Shown in pieces: positions 22,799-59,086 of a stretch of 64,000 nucleotides of DNA; within the stretch, counting starts at the first letter, position 1; every line of letters begins with the position of its first letter. The notes below the pieces were generated by a model. It had not been told where the DNA came from. It did no database searches and saw nothing but the letters and a program-made list of their open reading frames with translations. Position numbers and translations under genes: made by a program. This DNA is from a virus: the IMG/VR virus record IMGVR_UViG_3300024346_000010. The stretch is one strand, 5' to 3'.

Positions 22799-25700
22799 AT
22801 GGTCGACCAATTAATCAAGAATACATTTAAAAACACATATAGAGATGATTACAGCGACAGCGCTGGTTTTCATCGTGTTCTCTTTAATAACGGCCGTGCA
22901 GTTCAAGCGCGTGAGTTAACACAGCTACAAACTATTATTCAATCTGAGATTACTCGCTTTGGCAATAACATCTTCAAAGAAGGTGCTGCAGTAAATCCAG
23001 GTGGTATTAGTGTTAATCAGATTGAATTTGTTAAACTTAATACAGCATCAAATACATTACCATCAAATACTTCGACTATCATTGGGACTGAGTTCACAGG
23101 TGCGACGTCTGGAATTAAAGCAACGATCGTTGATGTTAAAGTTGCTGCTGGTGCAGATCCAGCAACAATATACGTGAAGTATAACGACGGGCTTTCTAGC
23201 GGCGCTTCAATCAAGTTTTCTCCTGCTGAAGATATTGCAAACGGTTCTGTTACACTTACGGTACAAACCACAAATACAACGTTGAATCCAGCTACTGGTC
23301 GTGGTCTTTCAGGCAACGTTGCAGGTGGGGATTTCTACGCAACAGGACGTTTTGTATACGCACCAAAACAAACATCGATCATTTCAAAATACACAACCCT
23401 GTTAACTGATGATCTTGGTTTTAAGATTGTTGAAGATATTGTTACTGCAAATGATGATGTAACTCTTTATGATAACTCTGGTGCGCTTCCAAACACTTCT
23501 TCGCCTGGCGCTGACAGATACAGAATTCGTCTTACTCTTGATATTAGAAGTAATGTTGATTCGGATGAAAACTTTGTTTACATTGCCAAAATCAGAAATG
23601 GTATTATCGTATCTGATGTTAAAGCAGAATCAGAAGATAATTATAATAAACTTACAGACGTTTTAGCTCTTAGAACAAAAGAAGAGTCAGGCAACTATAT
23701 TGTTAAACCATACACATTATCTTTTGACGACGATTCTGATGCAACTAAACTTGATATTCACGTTTCTCCAGGCACTGTATACGTTAACGGATATAGAGCA
23801 AATAAAGACTTTAACACGAATATCGTCGTAACAAAACCTAGAACAACCCAGACGGTAAACAATGAAGTTGCAGCATTTAGCATTGGCAACTATATCGTCA
23901 TTGATGGGAATAAAGGCCTACCAAATGTAAACGAATTCGAACTTATGAATTTACGTTCAGCTACAGCTCATGGTGGATCTACTATTGGTACAGCAAGAGT
24001 TCGTGCGATTGAAGAGAATGGTAACGGCAACTATCGTCTTTACATTTTCCAATTATCAATGAACTCTGGACAAAACTTCAGAGACGTAAGAAGCATTGGT
24101 ACTTCAACTTCCAACTATTCAAATTTGGTTCTTGAAAACTCTCAGGCAGTTCTTAAAGATGCAAGTAATAGCTCGCTTCTAGTAAGTCTTCCAACATCTA
24201 GACCTTCAGTATTATCCGATATTTCACTTGCAACTCAACGTAGATTTACAACATCAACGAACGGTTCAGGGCAAGCGACACTTACACTTTCAGCCTCAGG
24301 TGAAACATTTGCGAATACAAACGATTGGGTTCTTGCACTAGCAGACAGTGATATTATTTCTGGCGCAACAATTACTGGAGCTGGTACTACAACAGCTTCC
24401 CTCTCAGGACTTCCAGCATCTGAAGCAAATCTTGAAGTTATTACTTATGTTAATAAAGCAGCTGCAACAGTTAGATCAAAAAGCCTTGAAACAGGTGCTG
24501 ATACAATTGCATCATTCGATTCTGATGGCAATGGACTTATCTATGCAAATCTATCAAAAGCTGATATCTATTCCTTTGACGGAATTACATTGTCGGATTC
24601 TTCTGGCAGATCACTTGTAAGTAAGTTTACTATTGATAACGGCCAAAGAGACAACTTCTATGATCTAGGTCGTATTATTTTGAAACCTGGACAATCGCTT
24701 CCAACAGATAACGTTGTTGTTCAATATCAATATTTTGATCACGGTGTTTCAGGCGACTTCTTTGCCGTTAACTCATATACAGGCGAAGTTGACTATGAAG
24801 ATATTCCTTCACACACCCTAGCAGGTGGGACAACTGTTTCTCTTAGAGATGTTCTTGATTTCAGATCAGTTGTTAACTCCTCACAAACATTTGGAGCAGG
24901 AGCAGTTCTTCACGAACTTCCACAAACGAACGATACCATCCAAGCTGACGTTACATACTATCTTGGAACAAGAAATAAAGTTGTTATTACAAATAATAAT
25001 GAAATCAAGTTTATTTCAGGTAAGTCTGCTATTTCACCAAAATATCCAGAAACCCCTGAAAACTCGCTTGAGCTTTATAGAGTTACATTAAACCCATATG
25101 TTCTCTCTCCTTCTGATTTGACCGTTGAAAAGATTGACCATAGACATTATACTATGTCAGATATCGGTCGTCTTGAGGATCGTATTGATAAGCTTGAAGA
25201 ATTAACTTCTCTTAGCTTACTCGAACTCGATACAAGCGCATTGAGTGTATTGGATTCGGCTGGTCTTGACAGAACAAAATCCGGTTTCTTTGTAGATAAC
25301 TTTGCTGATCACACATTCACTGATGTTGCATCATCAGAACACAGAGCTGCTCTTGATCCGGTTAACAAAGCATTAAGACCGACTTCAAGTGAAGATGCTA
25401 TTACTCTTCAATACGACTCCGCGGCCTCAACAAATACGATTCTTAAAGGTGACAACGTATATCTAAACTATACACATAGAACGATATATGACCAATCTTC
25501 CGTAACAGGTACGGAAAACGTAAATCCATTTATTTTAATGGATTGGCTAGGTAACATTACAATGTCACCGTCAAGTGATAGTTGGATCGAAACCCAGTGG
25601 ACCGCAGATAGAATTATTAATGGTGGCACAAGACTTGATACAAGCAGAGCCAACCTTTGGAACTCAGCTTCGTTTAACTGGGGTGGAATTCCTCTTGATC

Positions 25701-27931
25701 AACTTCAAGTTGGTTCCACATCAAGTTCCATTACTTTAGCTTCAAGTACTGTTGCTGGTGGAAATACTTCTTCAACCATACAAAGTGGAAATATTCGAAC
25801 CACGACGATTTTTGCAAATTCTACAACTACTACTACAACCGGATCAAATAGAGTAGTTTCTTCCGAAACCGTGCGTGAAGTTGTTGGGGATAGAGTTATT
25901 GATGTTCTTGTTATTCCATTCATGCGCTCAAGAAAAGTGTATTTTAAAGGCGAAGGATTCAGACCTAATACAAGATTGTTCCCATTCTTTGACGATGTTT
26001 CAGTTGATGATTGGGTAAAATCAGAATCATTTGTAAATATGGCATCTGATCCAGTTGACTTTGGTAATAGTCTAAACGGAACCGTTGGACATCCAGACGG
26101 CGCATCAAATCTTGTTACTGACGGATCTGGAAGAATTGAAGGTTCATTCTTCATTCCATCGACAGCAGGTTTAAGATTTAGAACAGGCACAAGACCGTTT
26201 ACATTATCTGATGTTACATCTGGATTAAGAGCGAACGGAACTTCATTCGGTAAAACGACATTTACTTCAAGAGGTACTATTGAAGTTAGACAAAGAGATA
26301 TTCTTTCAACACGCGTTCTTACAGTTCAAAGTTTTACTAATACGACAACATCAGCCGATCGTCGCATTATTTCTACAGACACAATTGATGTACAGGATCG
26401 TGGAGATCCATTAGCACAGTCTTTCTTTGTTGCAGAACCAACAGGATATTTTGCGACAAAGTTTGATTTCTACTTTAAAACAAAAGCTGCATCAGAAGCA
26501 AATCCAGTATGGATCCAACTTCGCACTATGGAAAATGGCATTCCGACTGGTAATATCCTACCTGGATCAACTAAGTTTGTTTATCCTTCAGAAATTACAG
26601 TTTCTGATGATGCATCGGTTGCGACAACCTTTGAATTTGATGAGCCCGTTTACCTGGAGCCTTACAAAGAATATGCTGTTGTTATGCTTGCAAACACTAC
26701 AGATTACTTAGTGTATATTTCTAGAGTTGGCGACTTTATTCTAGGAACAACCGATGCTAAAGTAACTAGACAGCCATTCTTAGGGTCACTCTTTAAATCA
26801 CAAAACGCATCTACTTGGACTCCATCACAATGGGAAGACCTAACATTTAAAATGTATGGTGCACAGTTTACCGCAACAACAGGTATTGCAAAACTCAACA
26901 ACGTAGCAGTTCCTTCCGAACTACTTCCAGCCGATCCATTTAGTGTCGATTCTGCAGATGCAACAATCACCGTTAATCAAGGATCTCACGGTCTTACGGT
27001 TGGTGATGATGTTGTAATTTCAGGAGCAACTACATTCGGTGGCATTTCTGCAGGAAGTATTAACGGCATTAGAACAATTACGGCTCTTGATGCAAATGGC
27101 TACACATTTGAAGCTGACTCAGCATCAACATCCGCTGATATTGGTGGGGGAAGTGCAGTTCTAGCAAATAAAAACATTCCGATGGATGTTATGATTCCAA
27201 ATATCACGACTCTCTTATTAGATAATACTAATATTTCTGCAACAGGTGAGTTTACAACGGGTCAATCTCTTGCTGGGATAGAAACCGCTTATCAGAAAGA
27301 AAGCGCTGTTGATATTCCGATCAATAGAGAGATTGTATTCTCAACACCAAAGTTGATTGCTAATGCGTCAAATGAAACAAACAATATGGCAGGCGCAAAG
27401 AGCTTAACGCTTAATATTACAATGTCAACGAATAATGACTTTATCTCTCCTGTAATTGATATGCAACGTGCAACTGCTATTGCTATCTCAAACAGAATTG
27501 ACAAGCAATCTGCATCACCTGCTAGTGGATTTAACGTTCCACTTAACTATGTTGCGGAGACAACTGCAACAGGTGGCACACACGCTTCTAAGCATATTAC
27601 AAAAGCTATTACACTCGCCGATGATGCTGTTGGTTTGAAAGTTCTAGTATCAGCAAACAGACCATCGGTTGCAAGCTTTGATGTTTATTACAGAGTGTCA
27701 AACGGCACAACGCTGCTTACGGATACCGACTGGGCGCTAGCTTCAATTGAAAATAATATGCCTTCAGATGAAAATCCAGAAGTATTTAGATCATACGAAT
27801 ACCTTATCGGCGGGCAAGGCGGATCACTTCCAGCATTTAATCAGTTCCAAATCAAGGTTGTGTTTAAGTCAACGAATAGTAGTAAAGTTCCAATTATTCG
27901 TGACCTAAGAGCGATTGCGCTTGGTGTATAA
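22799..27931 (+). CDS. large virion structural protein (VrlC/DUF4815-like)
   Basis: 1710 aa; YRDDY..FHRVLF..GRAVQARELTQLQ, PGADRY, RTKEESGNY, GFFVDNF, DPLAQSF, DLRAIAL. Confidence 0.85.
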   Translation: MVDQLIKNTFKNTYRDDYSDSAGFHRVLFNNGRAVQARELTQLQTIIQSEITRFGNNIFKEGAAVNPGGISVNQIEFVKLNTASNTLPSNTSTIIGTEFTGATSGIKATIVDVKVAAGADPATIYVKYNDGLSSGASIKFSPAEDIANGSVTLTVQTTNTTLNPATGRGLSGNVAGGDFYATGRFVYAPKQTSIISKYTTLLTDDLGFKIVEDIVTANDDVTLYDNSGALPNTSSPGADRYRIRLTLDIRSNVDSDENFVYIAKIRNGIIVSDVKAESEDNYNKLTDVLALRTKEESGNYIVKPYTLSFDDDSDATKLDIHVSPGTVYVNGYRANKDFNTNIVVTKPRTTQTVNNEVAAFSIGNYIVIDGNKGLPNVNEFELMNLRSATAHGGSTIGTARVRAIEENGNGNYRLYIFQLSMNSGQNFRDVRSIGTSTSNYSNLVLENSQAVLKDASNSSLLVSLPTSRPSVLSDISLATQRRFTTSTNGSGQATLTLSASGETFANTNDWVLALADSDIISGATITGAGTTTASLSGLPASEANLEVITYVNKAAATVRSKSLETGADTIASFDSDGNGLIYANLSKADIYSFDGITLSDSSGRSLVSKFTIDNGQRDNFYDLGRIILKPGQSLPTDNVVVQYQYFDHGVSGDFFAVNSYTGEVDYEDIPSHTLAGGTTVSLRDVLDFRSVVNSSQTFGAGAVLHELPQTNDTIQADVTYYLGTRNKVVITNNNEIKFISGKSAISPKYPETPENSLELYRVTLNPYVLSPSDLTVEKIDHRHYTMSDIGRLEDRIDKLEELTSLSLLELDTSALSVLDSAGLDRTKSGFFVDNFADHTFTDVASSEHRAALDPVNKALRPTSSEDAITLQYDSAASTNTILKGDNVYLNYTHRTIYDQSSVTGTENVNPFILMDWLGNITMSPSSDSWIETQWTADRIINGGTRLDTSRANLWNSASFNWGGIPLDQLQVGSTSSSITLASSTVAGGNTSSTIQSGNIRTTTIFANSTTTTTTGSNRVVSSETVREVVGDRVIDVLVIPFMRSRKVYFKGEGFRPNTRLFPFFDDVSVDDWVKSESFVNMASDPVDFGNSLNGTVGHPDGASNLVTDGSGRIEGSFFIPSTAGLRFRTGTRPFTLSDVTSGLRANGTSFGKTTFTSRGTIEVRQRDILSTRVLTVQSFTNTTTSADRRIISTDTIDVQDRGDPLAQSFFVAEPTGYFATKFDFYFKTKAASEANPVWIQLRTMENGIPTGNILPGSTKFVYPSEITVSDDASVATTFEFDEPVYLEPYKEYAVVMLANTTDYLVYISRVGDFILGTTDAKVTRQPFLGSLFKSQNASTWTPSQWEDLTFKMYGAQFTATTGIAKLNNVAVPSELLPADPFSVDSADATITVNQGSHGLTVGDDVVISGATTFGGISAGSINGIRTITALDANGYTFEADSASTSADIGGGSAVLANKNIPMDVMIPNITTLLLDNTNISATGEFTTGQSLAGIETAYQKESAVDIPINREIVFSTPKLIANASNETNNMAGAKSLTLNITMSTNNDFISPVIDMQRATAIAISNRIDKQSASPASGFNVPLNYVAETTATGGTHASKHITKAITLADDAVGLKVLVSANRPSVASFDVYYRVSNGTTLLTDTDWALASIENNMPSDENPEVFRSYEYLIGGQGGSLPAFNQFQIKVVFKSTNSSKVPIIRDLRAIALGV

Positions 27932-28134
27932 TGAGATTAGTTAAAGCAGATAACGGCCCCGGTATGGCAAGAGATTTAAATACTGGGGCTATAATCAATA
28001 TAAATAGAAGTGAACTTGAACAAGCCCGTGAAGCAAAGCGACTGAGAAAAGCTAAAGATCAAGAGTTTGCGCAAATGAAAAATGATATTGATGATATCAA
28101 AAAAATGTTAACTCAGATTGTAGAGAAACTATAA
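27931..28134 (+). CDS. small conserved virion-associated protein
   Basis: RDLNTGAIIN plus C-terminal coiled coil; typical follower of the VrlC-like gene. Confidence 0.7.
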   Translation: MRLVKADNGPGMARDLNTGAIININRSELEQAREAKRLRKAKDQEFAQMKNDIDDIKKMLTQIVEKL

Positions 28135-28700
28135 TGGCAAAAGTAATTGTAAATTTATCAGACACTATGGACAGTTTTGTCACTAAGACAAATTTAATTT
28201 CTACATATGTTGGTGATCTAACGACTCTGAACACAACTCAAGACTCCGATCTTGTCGGGGCAATCAATGAGGTATATGCGCTAGTTGATAATGACCTAGA
28301 TTTTAGAAGTAAGATTAGCGTAACTGATGCGGGTGGAGATGGATCGTTATCCTATAGTTCTGCTACTGGTGTTATTACATATACTGGTCCAAGTGCTGCG
28401 GAAGTAAGAGCGCATATTAGCGTAACAGATGCTGGTGGAGATGGATCACTAAGCTATAACTCAACTTCAGGTGTTATTACATATACTGGACCAAGTGCAG
28501 CTGAAGTAAGAGCACACTTATCTGCAGGGACTGGAATTACATTTTCAAGTGGTGTTATAAGTGTAACTCCAGGAAGCATAAATACAACTGAATTAACCGA
28601 TGATGCCGTATCAAGAGCGAAATTAAAAGACGAAGTAGGTCTAGTGATATACGATAATAGCGGCGTCGCATTAAAAACCCTATACGGAGCAGGAAGTTAA
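28134..28700 (+). CDS. short fibre/whisker-like structural protein
   Basis: DLVGAINE motif, 34-aa tandem repeat, C-terminus LKTLYGAGS. Confidence 0.65.
   Translation: MAKVIVNLSDTMDSFVTKTNLISTYVGDLTTLNTTQDSDLVGAINEVYALVDNDLDFRSKISVTDAGGDGSLSYSSATGVITYTGPSAAEVRAHISVTDAGGDGSLSYNSTSGVITYTGPSAAEVRAHLSAGTGITFSSGVISVTPGSINTTELTDDAVSRAKLKDEVGLVIYDNSGVALKTLYGAGS
28314..28517 (+). repeat. intragenic tandem duplication, 2 x 102 bp
   Basis: ISVTDAGGDGSLSY(S/N)S(A/T)(T/S)GVITYTGPSAAEVRAH twice; units start at 28314 and 28416. Confidence 0.9.
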
Positions 28701-28701
28701 A

Positions 28702-29631
28702 ATGGCAATTAGAACACCTTTAAAATTGGATGGAAGTAATCTTAGGGAGATGACTTCCGGCGAAATCGAGGCAATTCAAACAGAAGCCATTCGCCAATAT
28801 GGCTTAAATCCATATGTTTACTTGTCAGTCGTTGCAAGTGGCGGTAATCTTGGAACTATTAATGATACTAGATTGATTGCAGGCGAGGGAACAACAGATG
28901 TAACAGACTACGATACAGAGGCAGAAACGCCGAACGTTTCTACTACAACTGTAGGATATGCTAGGATTACTCAATCAATTGACACAAGCTTAACTAACTG
29001 GACAAATGCGACACTTTCATATCCGTTATATTATGATGGTGGTGACCTAAGAGAAATGACCGCTGCTGACTTCGGGGATACTTTTATTCTTCCAGCTATC
29101 GATACATTAACTTCCGGCTACACTACTTCTGCACAAGCTGGAACATACCATATTTCAACAAGCTCTTCTGTTGCTGGGTCAACATTGGTTTCCAGCACTC
29201 CAGTATTTGTGGATACAAGAGCAAATGCCGGTGCTTATACTGCATCTGGTATTCCAGAAACTCAAGATCAACCAACGACTATTACGAATTACTATTTGCA
29301 TAGAATCAATTCTGCATCTGAAGGTTCTTATCAACTTCCAGTATGTTATACAAAGTCTGGAACAAATCTTCAACAAGCCTCTGCAGACGTACTACGAAAC
29401 GCACTTAGCACAATGATTAACTACTATGCGGCAGAAGTGACCGGGACTAGAATCAGATACAGGATTAACGGAACTGGTACTAACCGAGGTTCTGCTATGA
29501 CTGATACGAAGCTAAATAGCTCTACGTACCTACAGCGCTTTGTAGATACCGACGACTATAGAACACAAGAAGTTCCGAGTGGCACAGCAACAACAATCTC
29601 AACAAACTACTTAAGAATTTACCAAGTTTAA
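28702..29631 (+). CDS. virion structural protein (Thr/Ser-rich, internally repeated)
   Basis: Repeated LREMT, DTR/DTK and TITNYYL/ISTNYL motifs; within the structural operon. Confidence 0.6.
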   Translation: MAIRTPLKLDGSNLREMTSGEIEAIQTEAIRQYGLNPYVYLSVVASGGNLGTINDTRLIAGEGTTDVTDYDTEAETPNVSTTTVGYARITQSIDTSLTNWTNATLSYPLYYDGGDLREMTAADFGDTFILPAIDTLTSGYTTSAQAGTYHISTSSSVAGSTLVSSTPVFVDTRANAGAYTASGIPETQDQPTTITNYYLHRINSASEGSYQLPVCYTKSGTNLQQASADVLRNALSTMINYYAAEVTGTRIRYRINGTGTNRGSAMTDTKLNSSTYLQRFVDTDDYRTQEVPSGTATTISTNYLRIYQV

Positions 29632-29655: not shown

Positions 29656-30225
29656 ATGGCTATTTTTAGCGGTAAGGTTGTATCAGCAACCTTTATGGAT
29701 TTTCCGACTAATACATTAATTGAGGTTCTCTATCAAGAAGAAAATGGATTAGTGCCGTATGTTCTTGAAGTGGATTTCACTTCAAGTGATTTTAACGATC
29801 TTTTACAAGATATTACATTAGAAGAAATCGAAACTGCTACACGAGCTATAGTTAAAGCTGAAGCTAATACATTTAATCAAATGATTAACAGTGAGATTGA
29901 TCGTAGATGGGCTTTAGAATCTGAAAAGATTAAAGAAGCGTATGGGAAAGTCGATCAAGATCGGGAAGAGGCCCTAAAAGCTCTTCAAGAAAATTATAAC
30001 TCGGCCTCTTCGACATACCTTATTACCCCAAAAGATTTGCTAAATAAGGTGGAATCTTTAAATATCGATACTGATTTTTTGTTCAATATGAAAATTGCTA
30101 TTCTTGAAGATCCCATCATTTCCAAGTCAAAAGATAAAGAACTTAAGTTGTCAATCAGAAAAGCTAAATCAGTGTTTGAGCTATTAAGCATCTATAGTGC
30201 GAGAAAATTAGACCAAAAGGACTAA
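29656..30225 (+). CDS. hypothetical protein (possible fibre assembly chaperone)
   Basis: 189-aa ORF, helical C-terminal half. Confidence 0.55.
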   Translation: MAIFSGKVVSATFMDFPTNTLIEVLYQEENGLVPYVLEVDFTSSDFNDLLQDITLEEIETATRAIVKAEANTFNQMINSEIDRRWALESEKIKEAYGKVDQDREEALKALQENYNSASSTYLITPKDLLNKVESLNIDTDFLFNMKIAILEDPIISKSKDKELKLSIRKAKSVFELLSIYSARKLDQKD

Positions 30226-30227
30226 TA

Positions 30228-30866
30228 ATGTATAATGTGATATGTGTCAAGTTTGGCACAAAATATAATAGTCAATATGTCAACAAATTATACCATGATA
30301 TTAAAGCCGTAGCAAAATCGGACTTTAAGTTTTATTGCTATACTGATGATAAAATTGGTATAGACAAAGAAATCATTATCATAGACCCATTACCTAAACC
30401 CACTTTAAAAGGTGTCTGGAACAAACTTAGATTGTTTGATCCAGATATGCCTTTTAAGGGTAAAACTTATTTCTTTGATCTTGATGTTAAAATCTGCAAA
30501 GATCCCTTTATTCATACAGAAGAAAAAGACTGGGAAAAACTTACTCTTATCCACTCTCATTGGAAAATGGGGAAGGTGTATAACAGACTTTCAAACTATG
30601 ATGTAAAAGTAAATAGTTCTATTATGTCTTGGGACACCAATAGCAAAGATATTAATAATTACTGGACTCATTTTAATACTGGCTTTAGAGACTACTATTT
30701 ACGGAAATATGTGGGTATAGATAGATTTATAGTACATGAAGATTTTGATTATTTTACATTTGATAATCAATATGTACAATCAAAGAAATATCAAAAAGAA
30801 ATTGATTATGATCCATGTGTAATCACATTTGAGGAAATTGACGTTGAACTCAGAGATCTTATATAG
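30228..30866 (+). CDS. GT-A fold glycosyltransferase-like protein
   Basis: ICVKFGTKY..YVNKL, FYCYTD, WNKLRLF, DxD (FFDLDV), NSSIMSW, GIDRF. Confidence 0.75.
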   Translation: MYNVICVKFGTKYNSQYVNKLYHDIKAVAKSDFKFYCYTDDKIGIDKEIIIIDPLPKPTLKGVWNKLRLFDPDMPFKGKTYFFDLDVKICKDPFIHTEEKDWEKLTLIHSHWKMGKVYNRLSNYDVKVNSSIMSWDTNSKDINNYWTHFNTGFRDYYLRKYVGIDRFIVHEDFDYFTFDNQYVQSKKYQKEIDYDPCVITFEEIDVELRDLI

Positions 30867-31467
30867 AGCACTAAAGCTTACTGAAGAAGTTTATGATGAA
30901 TCGATGTACGGTATTGATGACTTATATCGCATTAAAGATATAGGTCACTCAGTCGATATTAACCACTGGAAAAGCAAAGAGTGGTTAGCAAAAGAATTCC
31001 ACAAACATTACAATCATGACGCCGGACATTTTTATGTTGCTGGCGGGTGGTATGGTATGGCAGCATATCAACTAAGACAAATGTGGCCTGATATTGATCA
31101 GATGGCTATCACTTCAGCTGATATGGATCCGATGTGTGAAGAATATGCATGGAAACTATTTTATGACAGTAATATTGATTTCATAACTGAAGAGGTTGAT
31201 GCTGAAATAGATTTATCGAAATACTCTGCTATCATTAACACAAGTTGTGAGCACATGGAGCAAGAGGATATTCTTTCTATCATTAAGAATAAACCTAAGG
31301 ATACCTGGATAGTATTTCAGAGCAATAATTTTGTTGATCTTACAGCACACATTAATTGTTGGCCAACAGTAGATTTATTTGCAGAAAGTCTTAAGTTAGA
31401 TTATGTTGCATATGCAGAATCTTTAGACTTAGGTGACTTCAAAAGACATATGGTAATTGGTAAATGA
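30844..31467 (+). CDS. class I SAM-dependent methyltransferase
   Basis: VAGGWYG (motif I), ADMDP, IINTSCEHM, QSNN; probable TTG start after GAGGA. Confidence 0.75.
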   Translation: MNSEILYRALKLTEEVYDESMYGIDDLYRIKDIGHSVDINHWKSKEWLAKEFHKHYNHDAGHFYVAGGWYGMAAYQLRQMWPDIDQMAITSADMDPMCEEYAWKLFYDSNIDFITEEVDAEIDLSKYSAIINTSCEHMEQEDILSIIKNKPKDTWIVFQSNNFVDLTAHINCWPTVDLFAESLKLDYVAYAESLDLGDFKRHMVIGK

Positions 31468-32333
31468 AAAAGGTAGTTTATAGCGTATTCATTGATATTC
31501 CAGAAGATAAGTTAGATAATCCTGGCTGGTTTGAAAATGACGTTCAAGTAAAAACTGATAAGAGTCTTCAAACCAAAAATGCGCTTAAGGAAAACTATGA
31601 CGGAATTGTAGCAAGACAGAAACAATACGCAGAATCGATTGGTGCCGATTATCATCTATATGAAATGGATGATTACTATAAGGATTTTGTTGCCACTTTT
31701 GAACAAGAATATCCAGAAGTTTCACACTATGATATAGTTAATTTCTATAAGCATTGGACCATGGCAGATATGGCAGTATTATATGATGCAGTATGTTATA
31801 TTGACTTTGACGTAATCCCAAACACAACAGACGATATTTTTGAAGCGCATGATTTGACTAAGTTTGGTTGTGCCCATTCCAATAAACTAGCAGAATGGGG
31901 TAAGTCCGTATCTCCTAAAGATTATAACACTTGCATTCGTAACCCATCTACAAAATATTGGAATACCCACGCAATGTTGCTTGAGGATGGTCTAGATCCA
32001 GATAATGATGTATTTAATACCGGAATTATGGTAGCTGGATCGGATGTTATTAAGAAGTTGGGTTACTTTAGAAATATCAGAGCCAATCTAGATTTTATGA
32101 CCGAGCTTAAAGAAGATCCAGTTTCAATGTATCCTCACAACATTCAACGTGTATTTGGATATGATAATGAAACTCTGTTTTCATATTTGGTTCATTCAAA
32201 GTCTATCGATATTCAATATCTCAACGGCCCTTGGCATTACATTATTGATGAAAAATTCGATAGTATGAAGCGAGCGGATCCTAGTGCTAAGATGTATCAC
32301 TTCATTAATAAGAAAATGGAATGGGTTCTGTGA
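31464..32333 (+). CDS. GT-A fold glycosyltransferase (GT8/GT34-like)
   Basis: YAESIGADY, YIDFDV (DxD), FNTGIM, DNETLFSY, MYHFINK. Confidence 0.75.
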   Translation: MKKVVYSVFIDIPEDKLDNPGWFENDVQVKTDKSLQTKNALKENYDGIVARQKQYAESIGADYHLYEMDDYYKDFVATFEQEYPEVSHYDIVNFYKHWTMADMAVLYDAVCYIDFDVIPNTTDDIFEAHDLTKFGCAHSNKLAEWGKSVSPKDYNTCIRNPSTKYWNTHAMLLEDGLDPDNDVFNTGIMVAGSDVIKKLGYFRNIRANLDFMTELKEDPVSMYPHNIQRVFGYDNETLFSYLVHSKSIDIQYLNGPWHYIIDEKFDSMKRADPSAKMYHFINKKMEWVL

Positions 32334-33001
32334 AGATATTCTGCGTAAGAATAGGAAACAAATATGGACCTGAGTACGAAGATTATATTAACTCAAAGCT
32401 AAGCAAGCATGAGGTAACCTGGATTCGTGAGCCTTTTCACCCGCACGTTCCTTTGCAGTGGAATAAGCTTCAAGTGTTTAATATGGATATCTATGAACCC
32501 GTAATTGTTATGGACATCGATAAACTGCTTATTAACGACTATGAGGACGTAATCAACTATCCATGCGAGAAGAATGAATTTGTTTCTATTCCATACTGGT
32601 GGAATTTTAATGGCACCCCATTTAAGATGAGTGGTGGATTCTATAAGTTTTGGCCTTCAAGAACAAAACACATTTATCAAAAGTTTATGAGTGATATATC
32701 TTATTATACAAACTACTATATCAAAGCTGGATTAACAAATGGTCCAGTGAATGGCGAGTTTATGTTCGTTCAAGACAGTCTATATGGAATGGATCTAAAA
32801 CTCATGCCCGATGCTTGGTTTACCCGCTGGCTAAGTTCAGATGATAAAGAAATGTGCGCTAAACTAACTGATAGATATTATGAGGTTACTGGTAATGAAT
32901 ACATCTATAATGGACAGTTTCATCCTGACTTAAAGATTGTTCACTTTACAAATAGTATGAACAAGCCGCATGAATGGAAAGATTATGACAGATTTATCTG
33001 A
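32321..33001 (+). CDS. GT-A fold glycosyltransferase-like protein
   Basis: CVRIGNKYGPEY, WNKL, VMDID (DxD), SGGFYKF, GEFMFV, IVHFT; distant paralog of 30228. Confidence 0.7.
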   Translation: MGSVKIFCVRIGNKYGPEYEDYINSKLSKHEVTWIREPFHPHVPLQWNKLQVFNMDIYEPVIVMDIDKLLINDYEDVINYPCEKNEFVSIPYWWNFNGTPFKMSGGFYKFWPSRTKHIYQKFMSDISYYTNYYIKAGLTNGPVNGEFMFVQDSLYGMDLKLMPDAWFTRWLSSDDKEMCAKLTDRYYEVTGNEYIYNGQFHPDLKIVHFTNSMNKPHEWKDYDRFI

Positions 33002-33395
33002 TAATAAATTGGGCATAAAATGCCAATGGATGGAAATTAAACGCGCATTAATAAATCATGAAGGTCAAGTTTTTCCATGCTGTTACTTTGCTAATATAGA
33101 ATATACCATATCAATTTTGGGAGATGATCCGAATGTATGGGATATTGAGCACTACGGCATTTGGCGGAAGGGTGACTATGTTGCTAAAAAAAATTATAAA
33201 ACTTCTCTGCATGAATATATGGAAACTAAAGAAGACCATAATGTTTTTAACCATACGTTAGAAGAAATATTAAACAATGAATGGTTTACTAAAACCCTTC
33301 CAGAGTCTTGGAATGATGAAGATAAATGCCACAGATTATGCAAAAAGTTCTGTTCAGTAAAATCTGATCATAGAGTTGGTTTAAAAAATGAGTAG
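32985..33395 (+). CDS. stand-alone SPASM/twitch-type Fe-S domain protein
   Basis: KCQW..GQVFPCCYF..LEEILNNEWF..LPESW..CHRLCKKFC. Confidence 0.75.
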   Translation: MTDLSDNKLGIKCQWMEIKRALINHEGQVFPCCYFANIEYTISILGDDPNVWDIEHYGIWRKGDYVAKKNYKTSLHEYMETKEDHNVFNHTLEEILNNEWFTKTLPESWNDEDKCHRLCKKFCSVKSDHRVGLKNE

Positions 33396-34170
33396 CGGCA
33401 TTTCAAATTTTAATAAACATTATAGCAATAAAGAATCAGTGATATTTTTTGAACTGACAACCCACTGTAATGCGGGATGCCCACAATGCCATAGAACGAA
33501 TAGAGATGGTTTGGGAAAGGCAGAATGGATCCCATTAAAACAGTGGACATTAGATAAATTTAAAAAAGCATTTCCGCCAGAAACGTTAGATAATATTAAA
33601 TGCATGGAGTTTTGTGGAACGTGGGGTGATCCCATGATGTGCAAAGACGTATTTGAAATTACTGAATATATTTTAAATGAATCAAATGCAAATGTATTGT
33701 TCAATACCAATGGTAGCATTAGAAATCCAGATTGGTGGTGGAAATTTGGTTTATTAGGCAAAGATCGTATGACCGTTGTTTGGGCTATCGATGGTTCTAC
33801 TCAAGAAATGCATAACAAATATAGACAAAACACAAATTTAAGCTTAATTATGGAAAATATGCAATCATTCACTGCAGCTGGCGGCATAAGTGTAACATTT
33901 ACCATCGTGTTTAAACATAATCAAGCGCATTTATATGATATAGCAACTCTAGCAAAAAATAATGGCGCAGTGTCAGCAACATTTGTGCAATCAAATCGAT
34001 TCCGGGAGGGAGAGCCCCAATATCATTTTATAGATAGTAAAGGTGAAAGTGATTATTTAGAACAATCTTCGCTGAAAAATGACAGGGATTTTTATTGGCA
34101 AAATTTTAATTTAAATAATGAAGATGACATTAAAAAAATAAAACAAGAATCTAAAGATGGTATATCATGA
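33388..34170 (+). CDS. radical SAM enzyme (core only)
   Basis: HCNAGCPQCHR (CxxxCxxC), CGTWGDP, NTNG, AIDG, VFKHNQ. Confidence 0.9.
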   Translation: MSSGISNFNKHYSNKESVIFFELTTHCNAGCPQCHRTNRDGLGKAEWIPLKQWTLDKFKKAFPPETLDNIKCMEFCGTWGDPMMCKDVFEITEYILNESNANVLFNTNGSIRNPDWWWKFGLLGKDRMTVVWAIDGSTQEMHNKYRQNTNLSLIMENMQSFTAAGGISVTFTIVFKHNQAHLYDIATLAKNNGAVSATFVQSNRFREGEPQYHFIDSKGESDYLEQSSLKNDRDFYWQNFNLNNEDDIKKIKQESKDGIS

Positions 34171-34958
34171 GACTCATATCAGATGAACAATTTTATAACT
34201 ATGATGAGTTATATAATAAAAATGAGTTAAGTCTGTGGCTCGACATTTCTACACACTGTAATGCTAAATGTCCTCAATGCCATAGAACGGATGCTAATGG
34301 CTTACAAAAAGTCGATTGGTTACCTGTTATTCAATGGTCAACTGAAGAGTTTAAAAAAGCGTTTACTCCTAAAAACTTAAGCCATATCGACAGGATTGAT
34401 ATTTGTGGTACATGGGGAGATCCCATGATGAATAAAGATATATTTGAAATTGTAAAATATATCATGAATAATTCTAAATGTAAAATATTAATTAATACCA
34501 ATGGTAGTATTAGGAATGCTGATTGGTGGTGGAAATTTGGTTTATTAGGCAGAGAAAGAATCACCGTTATGTGGGCAATTGATGGTGTTACACAGGATCA
34601 GCATTCACTATATCGACAGGATACTAACTTACAGACAGTTCTAGATAATATGGAAACATTTACTGCTGCCGGAGGTATATCTCAAGTGTTTACCGTTGTG
34701 TTTAAACACAATGAAAAAGATATCTACAATCTAGCTTCATTGGTAAAAGAAAAAGGAGCGCAGGATATTTTTTACGTGCCTTCAAATAGATTTAAGAGAG
34801 ATTCTAATAAATTTGAATTTATCGATAAAGTGGGTGAACTTAAATTTTTAGAAAAATCTTCTTTAGATGAAACTAATTCCCCTGGACTTTTTTGGAAAAC
34901 TCTATTTCTAGAAGAAGAAGATAAAATGGAAGTGATACGTAATGCAACACCAAAATAA
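34167..34958 (+). CDS. radical SAM enzyme (core only), paralog of 33388
   Basis: HCNAKCPQCHR, CGTWGDPMM, NTNGSIRNADWWWKFGLLG. Confidence 0.9.
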   Translation: MRLISDEQFYNYDELYNKNELSLWLDISTHCNAKCPQCHRTDANGLQKVDWLPVIQWSTEEFKKAFTPKNLSHIDRIDICGTWGDPMMNKDIFEIVKYIMNNSKCKILINTNGSIRNADWWWKFGLLGRERITVMWAIDGVTQDQHSLYRQDTNLQTVLDNMETFTAAGGISQVFTVVFKHNEKDIYNLASLVKEKGAQDIFYVPSNRFKRDSNKFEFIDKVGELKFLEKSSLDETNSPGLFWKTLFLEEEDKMEVIRNATPK

Positions 34959-35337
34959 ATGTAATATTAAATGTGAATGGATGCAGACAAAAAGGGTATT
35001 AGTAAATCCTGATGGACAAGTTTTGCCGTGTTGTTTTTTTGCTAATGTTATTTACATGTATGATAGAATGGGCGCACCGGAAGAATGGACTCCAAAGGCT
35101 GAATATGGTATTTCAGATCAATTAATGGATGTTCCAAGAGTCGCACACGAAACTAGCCAAGAAACAATTCTTATGGATTATTATAAAAATCGTGAAGAGT
35201 ATAACATATTCGATAATGACCTAGAAGATATTTTGAACAGTGATTGGTTTAAAAAAACATTACCTGAATCATGGGAAGATGAAAGTAAACTAGCCAGACA
35301 GTGCAAAACATATTGCCAAGTAAAAGATGAAGAGTAA
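34942..35337 (+). CDS. stand-alone SPASM/twitch-type Fe-S domain protein, paralog of 32985
   Basis: KCEW..GQVLPCCFF..LEDILNSDWF..LPESW..CKTYC. Confidence 0.75.
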   Translation: MQHQNKCNIKCEWMQTKRVLVNPDGQVLPCCFFANVIYMYDRMGAPEEWTPKAEYGISDQLMDVPRVAHETSQETILMDYYKNREEYNIFDNDLEDILNSDWFKKTLPESWEDESKLARQCKTYCQVKDEE

Positions 35338-36490
35338 CTTTTGTATTATACCGTGGATCTCAATCACATCAGATAATGCTGGATTAGTAAGACCGTGTTG
35401 TAAGTTTGCTGAAAAAGATGTTCAAGGAGAATATCAAACACCTAGCCTTAAAGATTATTCGTATGAGGACATATGGAATGGTCCAGAAATGCAGGCAATT
35501 AGGCAAGCATTTTTAGATGATAAAAAGATTCCAGAGTGTTCCTCGTGCTGGAAAGAAGAAGCGGCTGGATTGACCAGCTATAGAAACCAATATAACTACA
35601 CCTTTCTTCGACAAATTGATCCAAAAGACTATTCTACAACCTATGCTGAACCACCTAGAGTTGTAGATTTAAAACTTAGTAATGTGTGTAATTTTAAATG
35701 CCGTATGTGTGATTTTTCATACAGCAGTCTCATACTAAAAGAAGATAAAGCATTTAGAGGTTATGATATACCAGATGAATCATATTACCTTTCTAATAAA
35801 ATATTAAATACTGAAAATGAAGATTACTTCTTTGAAAAAATAGTTCCGAATCTTATTCAGATCGAGTTTACTGGTGGCGAACCATTTGTAAGTCCCGAAG
35901 CTAGGAAGCTAATTGATATATTATCACAATCAGAATATGCTAAAAATATTGCAATCAATATAACAACAAATGGTAGTAAAGTAAATACATCAATCTTAAG
36001 CCAACTAGAGAAATTTAAATTTGTTAGAATCGGATTAAGTGTTGACGATATTGGCTCTAGAGCGGAATACCAAAGGAAAGGTACTGTTTGGGAAACTGTA
36101 AGTCATAATTGCAAACTCTTTAATGATAACCAAAAGTTTTATGTAAATCTACATCCAACAGTAAACAACTATAGCATATGGAACTTTGATAAAACTTTGG
36201 AATGGGCAAAAGAAAACAACATAAGGGTTGTTACAAATATTTTACATGGGCCTGAACGATTGTGCATAAAAAATCTTAGTGCGTATAGTAAGTCTAAGGT
36301 TTATGAGAAACATAAAGATAATAAATCTATGGTTAACATTCTTTCATATATGATGCAAGATGGCGAGGATCTTACTGAAGATTTTATTCAAGAAACCACA
36401 TTGGTAGATAGTATTAGAAATGAAAGCTTTAAGGAAGTTTTTCCTGATTGGAGTGAGATAATTTATGGCTCTTTGCAAAGCCCCAGTTAA
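35327..36490 (+). CDS. radical SAM enzyme with N-terminal twitch/SPASM domain
   Basis: FCIIPW..VRPCC..CSSCW, then CNFKCRMC, GGEPF, TNG. Confidence 0.9.
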   Translation: MKSNFCIIPWISITSDNAGLVRPCCKFAEKDVQGEYQTPSLKDYSYEDIWNGPEMQAIRQAFLDDKKIPECSSCWKEEAAGLTSYRNQYNYTFLRQIDPKDYSTTYAEPPRVVDLKLSNVCNFKCRMCDFSYSSLILKEDKAFRGYDIPDESYYLSNKILNTENEDYFFEKIVPNLIQIEFTGGEPFVSPEARKLIDILSQSEYAKNIAINITTNGSKVNTSILSQLEKFKFVRIGLSVDDIGSRAEYQRKGTVWETVSHNCKLFNDNQKFYVNLHPTVNNYSIWNFDKTLEWAKENNIRVVTNILHGPERLCIKNLSAYSKSKVYEKHKDNKSMVNILSYMMQDGEDLTEDFIQETTLVDSIRNESFKEVFPDWSEIIYGSLQSPS

Positions 36491-37466
36491 CAATATGTAC
36501 TTTACTGTCCATGGAACGGTAGCGCCGTGCTGGTTAACGGTGGGAGCTATTGATCGTTGGAGCCCTACTCATTCTATAAGCGATATTTGGTTTGGTGAAA
36601 AATACCAACAGATTAGAGACAATATTGCTAACGATATTTTTAAAGGTAAATGTGCTGAGTGTAAAAAAGATATTGATAATGGTGTTTGGCCATTAGCTAA
36701 AGCATACGACCAATTTACAGTAAAAAAATATCCAAGCCTGATGGAACTTGAGTTAAGTAATCAATGTAATCTCGAATGTGTAATGTGTTCTGGAACTTTA
36801 AGTTCTGGTATTCGCAAGAACCGTGATAAGCTTCCGCCTCTTCCACAAATTTATACAGATGAATTTAGACAACAGCTTAGGGAGTTTATTCCTCATCTCG
36901 AAGAGCTACGATTTAATGGTGGTGAACCATTTGCACAAAAGATTGTTCTTGATATTTGTGAAGACGTTGCAGAACTAAATCCTGGTCTAAAAGTAAACAT
37001 TGCTACAAATGGTACAGTGTACAATAAGCGTGTTCAAAAAATTATGGATATGTGCAACATTCATATTAATATTTCTATCGACAGTCTCTTACACGACCGC
37101 TATAGCGAAATCAGAATTAATGGTGACCTGTCAGTCCTTATGAAGAACTTTGAAATCTTTAATAAATATTGTAAAGATGGAAATCGAGACTTGTCTATCA
37201 TGGTTAACCCAATGAGACAAAATTGGGATGAAATGGTAGAATTTGTTAAATGGACCGATAAACATCATGTGAAGTTGTGGTATAATACTATTCGTTATCC
37301 TGCCGATTGCGCTATATGGAATTTGCCGTCGGAAAAGTTAAAGGAGATTCATACTAGTCTTCAGGCAGAACTTGATAGCATTCCGATGACAACCTATAAT
37401 TATGATAAAGCTGATCATTTGATCAATAGACAGATAGCCAATTGGTTATTAGAAAGTTATGAGTAG
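36465..37466 (+). CDS. radical SAM enzyme with N-terminal twitch/SPASM domain
   Basis: LCKAP..VAPCW..CAEC, then CNLECVMC, GGEPF, TNGT, SIDS. Confidence 0.9.
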   Translation: MALCKAPVNNMYFTVHGTVAPCWLTVGAIDRWSPTHSISDIWFGEKYQQIRDNIANDIFKGKCAECKKDIDNGVWPLAKAYDQFTVKKYPSLMELELSNQCNLECVMCSGTLSSGIRKNRDKLPPLPQIYTDEFRQQLREFIPHLEELRFNGGEPFAQKIVLDICEDVAELNPGLKVNIATNGTVYNKRVQKIMDMCNIHINISIDSLLHDRYSEIRINGDLSVLMKNFEIFNKYCKDGNRDLSIMVNPMRQNWDEMVEFVKWTDKHHVKLWYNTIRYPADCAIWNLPSEKLKEIHTSLQAELDSIPMTTYNYDKADHLINRQIANWLLESYE

Positions 37467-37527
37467 TATACCTCTCCTCCCCCAGAAGTGATACTTCTAT
37501 TATACACAGATTTTTAGGATTGTAAAC
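37464..37527 (-). promoter_or_regulatory. repeated antisense promoter/G-tract element, copy 1
   Basis: Minus strand GTTTAC-N17-TATAAT-AGAAGT-atc-ACTTCT-GGGGGAGGAG; 45-bp core (37464-37508) is 42/45 identical to 61019-61063. Confidence 0.75.
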
Positions 37528-37532
37528 AGAAA

Positions 37533-38621
37533 ATGTTATGTCATGCGCCATTTTTAGGAATTACCGTAGATCCATCTGGATTATTGACATTATGCTGTGC
37601 AACAAGTGATAGGGAATATTTTAAAACACATATAGATGATGTAGATGATTTACAAGAATTCTTTTTGGGTGACAAGTATACTCATGTCAGAAATATTATG
37701 AAATCCGAAGGTATAAAAAAACTTCCTCAGTGTTTGCACTGCTGGAAAGCTATAGATGGATATTGGACAGAAATTAATAATTATAATGAGAAACAAATAC
37801 ATGATACGCTTCAAGTTTCATATCTAGAATTAACCACAAGCAACACATGTAATCAAACATGCGTCACATGTTCCAGTTATTTTAGCTCTAAGTGGAGAAA
37901 GATAGAATCTAAATTTGACAGACAGATTCACTCATCATTTCAATTATCAGATTCGGCTATTGATAAAGTTATTAAAGTCTTACCTGGATTGAAATATCTT
38001 CAAATTAAAGGCGGGGAACCGTTTGCTGATAAAAATAATCTTAAAATTTTAAAAGCGCTATCTAAAGTAAATCCTAAATGCGAAGTTATTATAACAAGCA
38101 ATTTTCAAAGAATATCCGATGAATGGTATGAAGTGTTAAAACTTCTTCCAAATATAAAGGCTGGCGCTAGTATTGATGGTATAGATAAAACTTATGACTG
38201 GATCCGAGGAGGGTCATTTGAAGATACTATACAAAACTTAGAGAATTTCTATAAAAAAACTGGAAATAAAGTTGTTATAAATGTATGCGTTTCTTTGTAT
38301 AACATATTTCTTTTATCTGATATATTAGATTATTTTAAAAATAAAGAATATGTTTCAGTCACAATATTCAATAATATCTTAAACTACCCCAATGAACAAT
38401 CAATACAATCTTTAGATCCTTTAACTTTGAAAAAAATAGCATTTTCTGAACTTCCTTTTTGGCATAACGACTTTGAAAATATAAGAAAAGTAGAATCATT
38501 TCCAGAAGATATTAGATTAGGTCTGACAAATAAGTTTATATCACATACGGAAATAATGAATTCAATTAGAGGTTTTAATATTTTCGATATTCAACCTAAA
38601 TTAGCTAATATTTATAAATAA
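37533..38621 (+). CDS. radical SAM enzyme with N-terminal twitch/SPASM domain
   Basis: LCHAPF..LTLCC..CLHCW, then CNQTCVTC, GGEPF, SIDG. Confidence 0.9.
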   Translation: MLCHAPFLGITVDPSGLLTLCCATSDREYFKTHIDDVDDLQEFFLGDKYTHVRNIMKSEGIKKLPQCLHCWKAIDGYWTEINNYNEKQIHDTLQVSYLELTTSNTCNQTCVTCSSYFSSKWRKIESKFDRQIHSSFQLSDSAIDKVIKVLPGLKYLQIKGGEPFADKNNLKILKALSKVNPKCEVIITSNFQRISDEWYEVLKLLPNIKAGASIDGIDKTYDWIRGGSFEDTIQNLENFYKKTGNKVVINVCVSLYNIFLLSDILDYFKNKEYVSVTIFNNILNYPNEQSIQSLDPLTLKKIAFSELPFWHNDFENIRKVESFPEDIRLGLTNKFISHTEIMNSIRGFNIFDIQPKLANIYK

Positions 38622-38635
38622 AACTCCTATAAATA
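38613..38635 (+). promoter_or_regulatory. tandem T4 late promoters
   Basis: TATAAATA at 38613 and 38628. Confidence 0.75.
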
Positions 38636-38669: not shown

Positions 38670-39005
38670 ATGGCAATCTATGCAAATCTTACAGTAGACC
38701 AAGGGTCTGAATTCGAAGCGTCTGTAGATGTTATAGATGGCGATGGTAATGCCGTTGACCTGTCGACATTCACATACCACGGACAGATAAGAAAAACCTA
38801 TAACTCCCTTACTGCAGTAGATTTTACTGTAGAATTGGATGTATCACAGCTATATACTTTAAATATTTCTTTATCCGCAGCACAATCGAATGCGATGAAA
38901 GCTGGAAGATATGTTTACGATGTAGAAGTTGTCAGCCCATCCGGAACAGTTACTAGAGTTATTGAAGGCCAAGTTGAATTAACCCCAAGCGTGACTAGAA
39001 TCTGA
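38670..39005 (+). CDS. virion structural protein (Ig-like adaptor common in T4-like phages)
   Basis: MAIYANLTVDQGS, GRYVYDVE, RVIEG..P.VT. Confidence 0.75.
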   Translation: MAIYANLTVDQGSEFEASVDVIDGDGNAVDLSTFTYHGQIRKTYNSLTAVDFTVELDVSQLYTLNISLSAAQSNAMKAGRYVYDVEVVSPSGTVTRVIEGQVELTPSVTRI

Positions 39006-43673: not shown

Positions 43674-44429
43674 ATGGCAAACCCAACTACCAGACAAGGA
43701 CTTATTGATTATTGTTTAAGACGACTAGGTGAGCCTGTTATAGAAATCAACGTCGACCCTGACCAATTAGAGGATAGGGTCGACGAAGCAATTCAATATT
43801 GGCAAGAGTTTCACGCCGACGCGACATATAGAACATATGTTGCACACCTCGTAGGTGACAGCGATGTATCAAGAGAATACATTGAAACAACCGACGATGT
43901 TCTATTTGTATCAAAATTATTCCGAATTTCTTCTTCATTTAACAATTCAATGAATTTCTTTGATATTAAATATCAAATGATGCTAAACGATATCGCTGAT
44001 ATGCAAAACTTCGCCGGTGATCTTGCATATTACGACCAATTAAATCAATATCTTTCTATGCTTGATATGAAATTAAACGGTGAGCCACAGACTACATATT
44101 CGCGTAGTATGAATCGCCTCTATATTCACGGAGATTTTTCCGATAAAGACATTCAAGCCGGCTCATATATAATTTATGAAGCATATAAAACTGTAGATCC
44201 AGGAACATTTGGTAAAGTTTATAACGACATGTGGCTTAAAGAATATACCACAGAGCTTATTAAACAACAATGGGGATCTAATCTGAGTAAATTTGAAGGC
44301 ATGCAAATGCCTGGAGGTGTCACTCTTAATGGTAGACAATTGTATGATGATGCCACTGCCCAAATAGAAAGACTCAGGGAAAAGATTCGCACTGACTTTG
44401 AAATGCCGACGGATTTCTTTGTAGGATAA
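43674..44429 (+). CDS. gp13: neck protein gp13
   Basis: LIDYCLRRLGEPVIEINVD, KQQWGSNLSKF..MPGGVTLNG; CATAAATA late promoter at 43646. Confidence 0.95.
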   Translation: MANPTTRQGLIDYCLRRLGEPVIEINVDPDQLEDRVDEAIQYWQEFHADATYRTYVAHLVGDSDVSREYIETTDDVLFVSKLFRISSSFNNSMNFFDIKYQMMLNDIADMQNFAGDLAYYDQLNQYLSMLDMKLNGEPQTTYSRSMNRLYIHGDFSDKDIQAGSYIIYEAYKTVDPGTFGKVYNDMWLKEYTTELIKQQWGSNLSKFEGMQMPGGVTLNGRQLYDDATAQIERLREKIRTDFEMPTDFFVG

Positions 44430-44433
44430 TATA

Positions 44434-59030: not shown

Positions 59031-59086
59031 ATTATCTCCTATTTCCAACATATATATCTATGAATATAATTTAATAGAGTATTGTT

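Follow-up and report, generated by a model that had tools for sequence, protein, structure and literature searches.

A glycosyltransferase, methyltransferase, and radical SAM gene block in the fiber-side region of a pelagimyophage-like genome: a candidate phage-encoded glycan pathway

A 64,000-nucleotide (nt) stretch of viral DNA from IMG/VR record IMGVR_UViG_3300024346_000010, here called the window, contains at positions 30228 to 38621 a block of 11 co-oriented open reading frames (ORFs) that appears to encode the building and tailoring of a sugar. The block is filled by three glycosyltransferases (GTs), one methyltransferase, five radical S-adenosylmethionine (SAM) enzymes (rSAM), and two stand-alone SPASM proteins. 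A preliminary description, made from the DNA letters alone, had counted the same genes, assigned the GTs to the GT-A class, and proposed that the products build and tailor a glycan or other modification. Profile and structure searches agree with that count, and the sugar reading is now well supported by enzyme classes, intact motifs, and gene associations. The best explanation for the block as a whole, which we put forward tentatively, is a soluble phage-encoded glycan pathway with an acceptor on the fiber side of the virion.

The genes at the start of the block, P1 to P4 (all block genes lie on the plus strand), gave no match in Pfam, NCBIfam, or PHROGs searches and were assigned from fold models, family comparisons, and invariant motifs. 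P1 (30228-30866) is predicted to be a retaining GT-A glycosyltransferase. Its AlphaFold2 (AF2) model, built on 14 orthologues, has a pLDDT of 86, and its best PDB folds in Foldseek are GT6 BoGT6a (E 1.6e-9), GT24 UGGT, GT8 LgtC, and LARGE1, with a probability of 1.00 and TM scores of 0.55 to 0.64; compared with phage GTs in BFVD, the TM score is 0.81. A DxD motif, D84-L-D86, is invariant in the ortholog alignment. As modeled, P1 has the fold of retaining GT-A enzymes of the GT6/GT8/GT24 type. P4 (32321-33001) is homologous to P1 and is predicted to be a second GT-A glycosyltransferase of this type: hhalign relates it to the P1 family (96.8%, E 2.5e-10), the GxKY, WNKL, and DxD motifs align, and its DID motif (D65-I-D67) is invariant.

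P3 (31464-32333) is a candidate GT8-like glycosyltransferase from a large marine family of 479 homologues. The GT8 profile PF01501 is matched by 5 of 21 sampled family members (best E 4.2e-7), P3 itself giving no match at E values up to 10, and the motif D114-F-D116 is invariant in the family. P3 is 38% identical to Mosig_00091 of Pelagibacter phage Mosig. A profile comparison of P1 with P3 found no relation, and sequence and profile searches of the PDB with P3 returned nothing useful. Longer P3 relatives, metagenomic proteins of about 570 amino acids (aa), consist of two tandem GT8-like domains, each half with its own DxD motif, and one of the related loci described below (L025) has this tandem P3-type arrangement as two adjacent genes. 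A P1 orthologue on a 135-kb contig (L017:3023-3742) has five in-frame stops near its C-terminal end, which may reflect a frameshift or a decaying gene.

P2 (30829-31467) is predicted to be a class I SAM-dependent methyltransferase. Its AF2 model (pLDDT 87) has the class I fold, for which a seven-strand Rossmann-like architecture, a glycine-rich loop for SAM, and an acidic residue following strand 2 are typical; the residues GGWYG, D98, and D100 are invariant. The listed TTG start at 30829, which overlaps P1 by 38 nt, is doubtful because orthologues carry a stop inside the equivalent of the first 10 or so codons (12 of them within the first 3 to 9 codons); translation probably begins slightly farther downstream, by a few codons. 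The top Foldseek matches of P2 are the small-molecule O-methyltransferases CysG and DnrK (E 1.2e-7); TehB-like enzymes are matched as well. Such natural-product methyltransferases as nearest folds would suit a pathway to a free small molecule, that is, an aminoglycoside-like or other glycosylated metabolite directed, for example, against competitors; in the same vein, the homologous rSAM, aminotransferase, and amidinotransferase genes of cyanophage S-SCSM2R were annotated by its authors as antibiotic-synthesis genes. However, Foldseek neighbors of small methyltransferases are not substrate specific, the block contains no scaffold-forming enzyme, exporter, or resistance gene, and a metabolite would leave the fixed position in the fiber operon unexplained. 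We consider this explanation extremely unlikely.

The GT folds also bear on DNA hypermodification, in which the GTs and rSAM enzymes would decorate modified bases (e.g., hydroxymethylcytosine) before packaging. T4 DNA glucosyltransferases are GT-B enzymes whose genes sit with replication and early genes, whereas P1 has a GT-A fold and the block lies in an apparent late structural unit. It contains no partner of the DNA-binding, kinase, or transglycosylase type. Thymidine hypermodification pathways do include radical SAM enzymes, DNA can be modified by late genes (Mu mom is an example), and three large relatives of the window that have P1 to P3 carry a thymidylate-synthase- or dCMP-hydroxymethylase-like gene. 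Yet the complete phage Mosig has a related P2-P3-P4 cluster and no gene of the PF00303 (thymidylate-synthase/hydroxymethylase) type, and DNA as the target seems very improbable.

The rest of the block encodes the rSAM and SPASM proteins. R1 (33388-34170) and R2 (34167-34958) are paralogues with 52% identity, each a radical SAM core without an auxiliary domain; R1 carries the motif CNAGCPQC. R1 matches phrog_21308 (E 2.5e-29), and R2 is 33% identical to gp083 of Campylobacter phage CP220. S1 (32970-33395) and S2 (34942-35337), also paralogues (45% identity), are stand-alone twitch/SPASM iron-sulfur subunits scoring 27.1 and 29.3 bits against PF13186 (cut-off, 21.5 bits). N9 (35327-36490), N10 (36465-37466), and N11 (37533-38621) are rSAM proteins with an N-terminal twitch domain, and in all three Pfam puts SPASM ahead of Radical_SAM. 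All five rSAM proteins contain CxxxCxxC, and the PF04055 cut-off of 29.5 bits is passed by R2 (35.7), N9 (53.1), N10 (49.4), and N11 (48.9), with R1 (28.5) just under it; by sequence, the five cores belong to the radical SAM superfamily. N9 (309.8 bits) and N11 (184.5 bits) are members of NF033640 (N_Twi_rSAM; cut-off, 170 bits), and N10, with a full-length match of 144.4 bits, is a divergent relative below the cut-off. N11 also matches phrog_14086 (E 4.3e-21). Across 15 sequences, including KVP40.0272, to which N10 is 24% identical over its full length, the twitch cysteines C6, C24, C71, and C74, the core cysteines C121, C125, and C128, and the motif GGEPF are invariant. PDB sequence and profile searches with N9 found no solved structure. 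Membership of the His-Xaa-Ser (HxsC) family was considered and rejected (about 30 bits compared with a cut-off of 268), and scores against TIGR04466 BlsE were 22 to 26 bits, with a cut-off of 400.

The canonical rSAM-SPASM/twitch enzyme is a single polypeptide, and here, as in Mosig, R and S are separate ORFs. Their counterparts in bacteria are single proteins of 351 and 324 aa, with the core first and the auxiliary domain second, and S1 aligns with the C-terminal part of such fused enzymes. The split pairs of the window are mirrored, S1-R1-R2-S2, so that R2-S2 stands in the canonical order and S1-R1 is reversed; the Mosig pair is R then S. A canonical split pair, a reversed split pair (both within 32970-35337), and the fused reversed-order enzymes N9 to N11 are thus found in one operon, and these mixed arrangements could be a snapshot of the N-terminal-twitch architecture arising. 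The bacterial N_Twi family occurs mostly in metagenome-assembled genomes (MAGs) of Bdellovibrionota, in arrays of up to nine paralogues. Contigs L033, L037, L042, and L054 from such MAGs hold tandem arrays of six to nine N_Twi_rSAM paralogues within 15 to 17 kb, and two others (L034 and L046) hold fused R+S-type enzymes, L034 also having a P2-like methyltransferase. Neighbors of the Bdellovibrionota arrays include carbamoyltransferases, Asp/Arg hydroxylases, GT2 enzymes, B12-rSAM enzymes, and an epimerase.

The distribution of the block among its relatives separates a core from a variable layer. A scan of IMG/VR with P3 yielded 24 loci, onto each of which the window proteins were mapped. The gene order runs from a gp8-like gene through a VrlC-like gene, a 67-aa gene, and three fiber-side genes to P1-P2-P3, then an optional P4 with rSAM genes, an LtfC-like gene, and further fibers. 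P3 lies between the fiber genes and the LtfC-like gene in 23 of the 24 loci (L025 is rearranged), and the P1-P2-P3 block occupies this position in most of them. In 13 loci P3 is directly followed by the LtfC-like gene, and those contigs that reach far enough upstream show the P1-P2-P3 core only. The rSAM genes are present in 10 loci, numbering from zero to five per locus across the set, with the window having the largest complement. P4 accompanies them in nine of the 10; in the remaining one, L025, a second P3-like GT takes its place, and P4 without rSAM genes was seen once (L024). The smallest add-on comprises P4 with one R and one S gene (L004), and larger ones gain N10 and then N9 and N11. 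Conservation is higher for P2 and P3 than for the fiber proteins next to them (in L012, 59 to 60% compared with 29 to 47% identity). According to this comparison of gene content, P1-P2-P3 is a conserved core to which P4 and the rSAM genes are added as cassettes. Since the third GT and the rSAM genes co-occur, the rSAM layer may serve an extra sugar. The preliminary description had asked if such a cluster always lies among tail and fiber genes; for this gene family the position holds in the 23 loci mentioned above and in Mosig, where the cluster adjoins VrlC-like and fiber genes.

Two loci capture changes in the add-on layer. L007 is 89 to 93% identical in DNA to the window over 17 kb and lacks exactly 32989-34166, which corresponds to S1 and R1 (junction at L007:11525). 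In L009, deletion scars at 7400-7862 join N9 residues 5-28 to N10 residues 284-332 and N11 residues 1-33 to N11 residues 337-362, and intact R/S genes and P4 are retained. Sequence comparison thus indicates that gain and loss occur cassette-wise. The P3 protein of L007 is only 74% identical to that of the window, compared with 94 to 99% for its neighbors, which suggests allele exchange by recombination.

This pattern also bears on protein-directed radical chemistry, in which the rSAM enzymes would act on a fiber or fiber-associated protein (by cross-linking, epimerization, or formylglycine formation, as SPASM/twitch peptide maturases or the anaerobic sulfatase maturase do) and the GTs would serve separately. 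Most characterized SPASM enzymes modify peptides or proteins, fiber proteins adjoin the block, and the NCBIfam secondary matches of the rSAM genes are peptide maturases. The scores of those matches, however, are far below the cut-offs, and the rSAM genes can be missing from loci that keep the same fiber genes on either side; they covary with the third GT, and unrelated phages also have them in company with sugar enzymes and amidinotransferases. Nor is there a small precursor ORF, or room for one inside the block, such as a ribosomally synthesized and posttranslationally modified peptide would need: gaps are limited to two, of 66 and 48 nt, and no small ORF is conserved in the related loci, although overlapping micro-ORFs were not searched exhaustively. 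We regard a protein substrate for the rSAM enzymes as quite unlikely.

Modules combining rSAM and GT genes, often with an amidinotransferase, recur across phages. The VrlC gene and a fiber gene of Mosig have as neighbors P2-, P3-, P4-, and P1-like genes, an R/S pair, and further genes whose annotations read MoaA-like, DegT-type aminotransferase, carbamoyltransferase, and epimerase. That rSAM genes stand beside sugar enzymes in Mosig, CP220, S-SCSM2R, KVP40, and the Bdellovibrionota arrays favors a sugar role, and a sugar as the substrate of the rSAM enzymes is what we infer by analogy with these associations. Two unlinked genes of the window may supply precursors, as the preliminary description had suggested. 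A putative NAD-dependent sugar epimerase/dehydratase (61778-62530, plus strand; PF01370, 93.4 bits) is 35% identical to Mosig_00096, which lies inside the fiber-side cluster of Mosig. An amidinotransferase (58143-59051, minus strand) is 36% identical to ORF309 of S-SCSM2R and 25% identical to gp086 of CP220, and its homologues cocluster with GTs and rSAM genes in both of these phages. Both suggestions thereby gain support by association.

We examined the composition and transcription signals of the block. Its junctions overlap or leave at most 2 nt, except for a 66-nt gap at 37467-37532. The AT-richness seen by eye in the preliminary description is real (31 to 35% GC, compared with 38 to 46% in the surroundings). 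The GC content at third codon positions (GC3) of the block genes (0.20 to 0.38) equals that of the rest of the window, and the drop is confined to codon positions 1 and 2, so the low GC reflects amino acid composition, with Lys-, Asn-, and Ile-rich enzymes contrasting with Ala-, Gly-, and Thr-rich fiber proteins. The possibility that low GC marks a foreign or recently imported island was rejected because GC3 is at background.

The nearest T4-type late promoter motif upstream of the block, TATAAATA, lies on the plus strand at 27999-28006, about 135 nt before the fiber gene at 28134, and the same motif occurs at the matching relative position in eight related loci. Two further plus-strand copies (38613 and 38628, spanning 38613-38635) stand just before the LtfC-like gene and would start the next late unit; in 19 related loci, the LtfC-like gene is preceded by a late motif at a distance of 32 to 41 nt. 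A plus-strand scan for TATAAATA found none inside the block. Since conserved late motifs bracket the block, none lies within it, and its junctions overlap, the block is probably the tail of a late fiber transcription unit starting at 27999, a reading that these observations fit without proving. The proposal of the preliminary description that the block is read through from late structural transcripts is upheld to this extent, the block lying in an operon of late structural type.

Inside the 66-nt gap, the one true intergenic space of the block, lies a 27-nt element with a small hairpin (37479-37505); a second copy is at 61034-61060. The core, C5-AGAAGT-NNN-ACTTCT-ATTATAC, occurs twice in the window with two differences, both in the hairpin loop, and no such repeat is expected by chance. 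On the minus strand, the copy at 37479-37505 overlaps a near-consensus sigma-70-like site, TTTACA-16-TATAAT. In RNA folding of the 66-nt gap, the hairpin was no more stable than in shuffled sequences.

These lines of evidence suggest the following pathway. P1 and P3, as retaining GT-A enzymes, would add sugars from nucleotide-sugar donors, and P2 would methylate their product to give a short methylated glycan, to which P4 would add a further sugar in extended versions. The rSAM set would work as two heterodimers, each formed by split R and S subunits, and three enzymes with an N-terminal twitch; every one of these five units would hold a SAM cluster plus one or more auxiliary Fe-S clusters. 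The set would edit the P4 sugar or its nucleotide-sugar donor via hydrogen abstraction, by oxidation, epimerization, deoxygenation, or C-C chemistry. The genes would be read out late, as the end of the fiber transcription unit from the promoter at 27999. The most likely acceptor would be a fiber-side protein from the same operon, so that the phage would place a variable glycan coat on its own host-recognition apparatus.

The virion as the target is what we infer from several features. The block has a fixed place in the fiber operon, its core is conserved above the level of the fibers, and it has no membrane partners. P1-like GT domains are fused in other phages to MptE-like domains, a family that includes the Maf flagellin glycosyltransferases. 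There is also precedent in giant viruses, in which clade-specific virus-encoded clusters that glycosylate virion fibrils are established (PMC10117803).

Several points weigh against this reading. We identified no acceptor protein and no glycosylation site motif, and a search for a GT or methyltransferase fused to a structural domain found none: the elongated P3 proteins are GT-GT tandems and nothing else, and P2 lacks an elongated version. The fiber-side island is a general hot spot for variable genes, so that position by itself says little. Scans for generic sigma-70 promoters and terminators gave matches at chance level only and are uninformative. The late timing is deduced from motif positions only. 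To our knowledge, no NF033640 member has a known substrate, and a literature search for the family name or for an N-terminal twitch domain found no paper naming the family. More distant versions of the module also occur away from structural genes. In KVP40 the N_Twi homologue is two genes from a PF00534 GT and near nrdAB; in S-SCSM2R the GTs, aminotransferase, rSAM, and amidinotransferase genes are among nonstructural, early-type genes; and a P1-like GT is also found in the early region of Mosig. The preliminary description had named homologous clusters unlinked to structural genes as grounds for abandoning its proposal; such clusters exist among these distant versions, whereas the gene family of the window itself is linked to structural genes.

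Remodeling of the host envelope, in which a lipopolysaccharide (LPS) O-chain or other surface glycan would be modified to block superinfection or the adsorption of progeny to debris, has to be weighed against a virion acceptor. Lipid-linked intermediates on the membrane's inner face can be substrates for soluble GT-A enzymes, and the CP220 module is followed by a PAP2 membrane phosphatase. O-chain modification that avoids coinfection has been proposed for pelagimyophages, whose GT8 enzymes are of a type typical of LPS core synthesis (PMC7029224), a proposal that likewise counts against a virion acceptor, and similar GT-rich islands of cyanophages have been read as serving cell-surface modification (PMC12801897). 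The block, however, contains no membrane protein, flippase, polymerase, or Gtr-type component: a search for a flippase or polymerase partner found none, its proteins look soluble, and the sole hydrophobic stretch is in N11, where one internal 19-residue window exceeds 1.6. Terminal or multiple hydrophobic segments and Pfam families of the kind associated with Gtr-type seroconversion, which employs a flippase, a bactoprenol glycosyltransferase, and a serotype-specific integral GT, are absent from the block. Moreover, the block sits in a late structural unit without its own promoter, and with late expression a slow-growing host would hardly have time to replace its surface; conserved coinheritance with fiber genes is not required by such a model. 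We judge host envelope remodeling unlikely, though it deserves serious consideration, and keep the virion fiber-side acceptor as the preferred, tentative reading. A fuller proposal, possible but doubtful, is that SAR11-type myophages coat their host-recognition fibers with a phage-made glycan, which a conserved GT-methyltransferase-GT core would build and swappable rSAM cassettes would diversify, and that the split, mirrored, and fused twitch forms show the origin of N_Twi_rSAM.

By gene content and position, the block is one case of the host recognition cluster (HRC) published for pelagimyophages, which sits between the gene for VrlC and the gp14 neck gene and contains tail fibers and many GTs, GT8 being the commonest (Zaragoza-Solas et al. 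2020, mSystems, PMC7029224). Both occupy the same genome site and have the same mix of fibers, GTs, and radical SAM cassettes that differ between close relatives. That account is descriptive, and the present analysis adds the P1 and P2 folds, the layering into core and add-ons, the split mirrored R/S pairs, the NF033640 assignment, and the deletion scars.

A second parallel is the module of phages CP220 and CPt10, which was called interchangeable and of unknown function (Timms et al. 2010, PMC2853527). The CP220 module has five rSAM genes, three of them 30 to 33% identical to R1/R2, two nucleotide-diphospho-sugar transferases (GT-A), and an amidinotransferase homologous to that of the window; it adjoins baseplate genes and is interchangeable between close relatives. 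It differs in belonging to another phage lineage and host, in having the amidinotransferase inside the module and rSAM enzymes fused to Cys-rich tails, and in having no P1-P2-P3 core.

Known virion glycosylation systems offer a third comparison. Chlorovirus A064R represents virus-encoded virion glycosylation, and glycosylation of mycobacteriophage capsids and tails was reportedly described by Freeman et al. in 2023 (cited in PMC12801897). Like the window, the Megavirinae fibril clusters combine virus-encoded GT-A enzymes and methyltransferases that lie beside, or are coexpressed with, structural genes, in clade-specific sets (PMC10117803). In contrast to the window, the Megavirinae, chlorovirus, and mycobacteriophage systems are not known to use radical SAM enzymes, and attachment to virion proteins, which has been shown there, is a prediction here.

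For the rSAM chemistry, the relevant precedents are the twitch/SPASM enzymes BtrN, AprD4, NeoN, and BlsE, which act on sugars and aminocyclitols. They share with the window proteins a radical SAM core with an auxiliary Fe-S domain, and relatives of the window proteins are associated with aminotransferase, amidinotransferase, and GT genes. The similarity is at the superfamily level only, and the domain order is reversed in N9 to N11 and split in R/S.

The window as a whole derives, by its gene content, from a T4-like, pelagimyophage-like myovirus of the marine SAR11-phage group. The T4-like assignment follows from a gene order that runs from baseplate wedge genes (gp6 and gp8 types) through a 1710-aa giant protein, fibers, neck (gp13/gp14 types), terminase, sheath, and portal to the major capsid protein. 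The capsid protein is 66% identical to that of Phage C48C1, 63% to those of Methylophilales Melnitz phages, and 61% to that of Pelagibacter phage HTVC008M. A megablast search with the block found nothing matching among GenBank phages. The giant structural protein (22799-27931; DUF4815, 203.7 bits), the counterpart of the Mosig VrlC protein, is the upstream landmark of the variable island. It is followed on the plus strand by three structural or fiber-side genes with weak PHROG tail-fiber matches, namely, a repeat-containing fiber protein (28134-28700) and the genes at 28702-29631 and 29656-30225, whose order is kept in more than 20 loci and which adjoin VrlC in Mosig. Downstream, the LtfC-like gene (38670-39005, plus strand), assigned by phrog_3304 (E 1.1e-24) and synteny, encodes a beta-sandwich protein of the fiber assembly type and forms the conserved boundary of the enzyme block. 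The neck genes of gp13 and gp14 types follow at 43674-45315, and the block is thus flanked by fiber, baseplate, and neck genes.

Pelagimyophages infect the ocean's most abundant bacteria, and their host range is set at the fiber-side island. If the fibers are glycosylated, marine phage-host recognition would have a carbohydrate layer that is missed by sequence-based host prediction, and a phage-made fiber glycan would be a counterpart of tail-fiber sequence variation. If the host surface is remodeled instead, the block would give a lytic phage a system of superinfection exclusion. In both cases, the N-terminal-twitch rSAM family is abundant in aquatic phages and predatory Bdellovibrionota. A small, well-bounded block with a core trio, an extra GT, and five rSAM genes, together with deletion variants found in nature and a relative in culture (Mosig, grown on HTCC1062), makes its role a tractable question.

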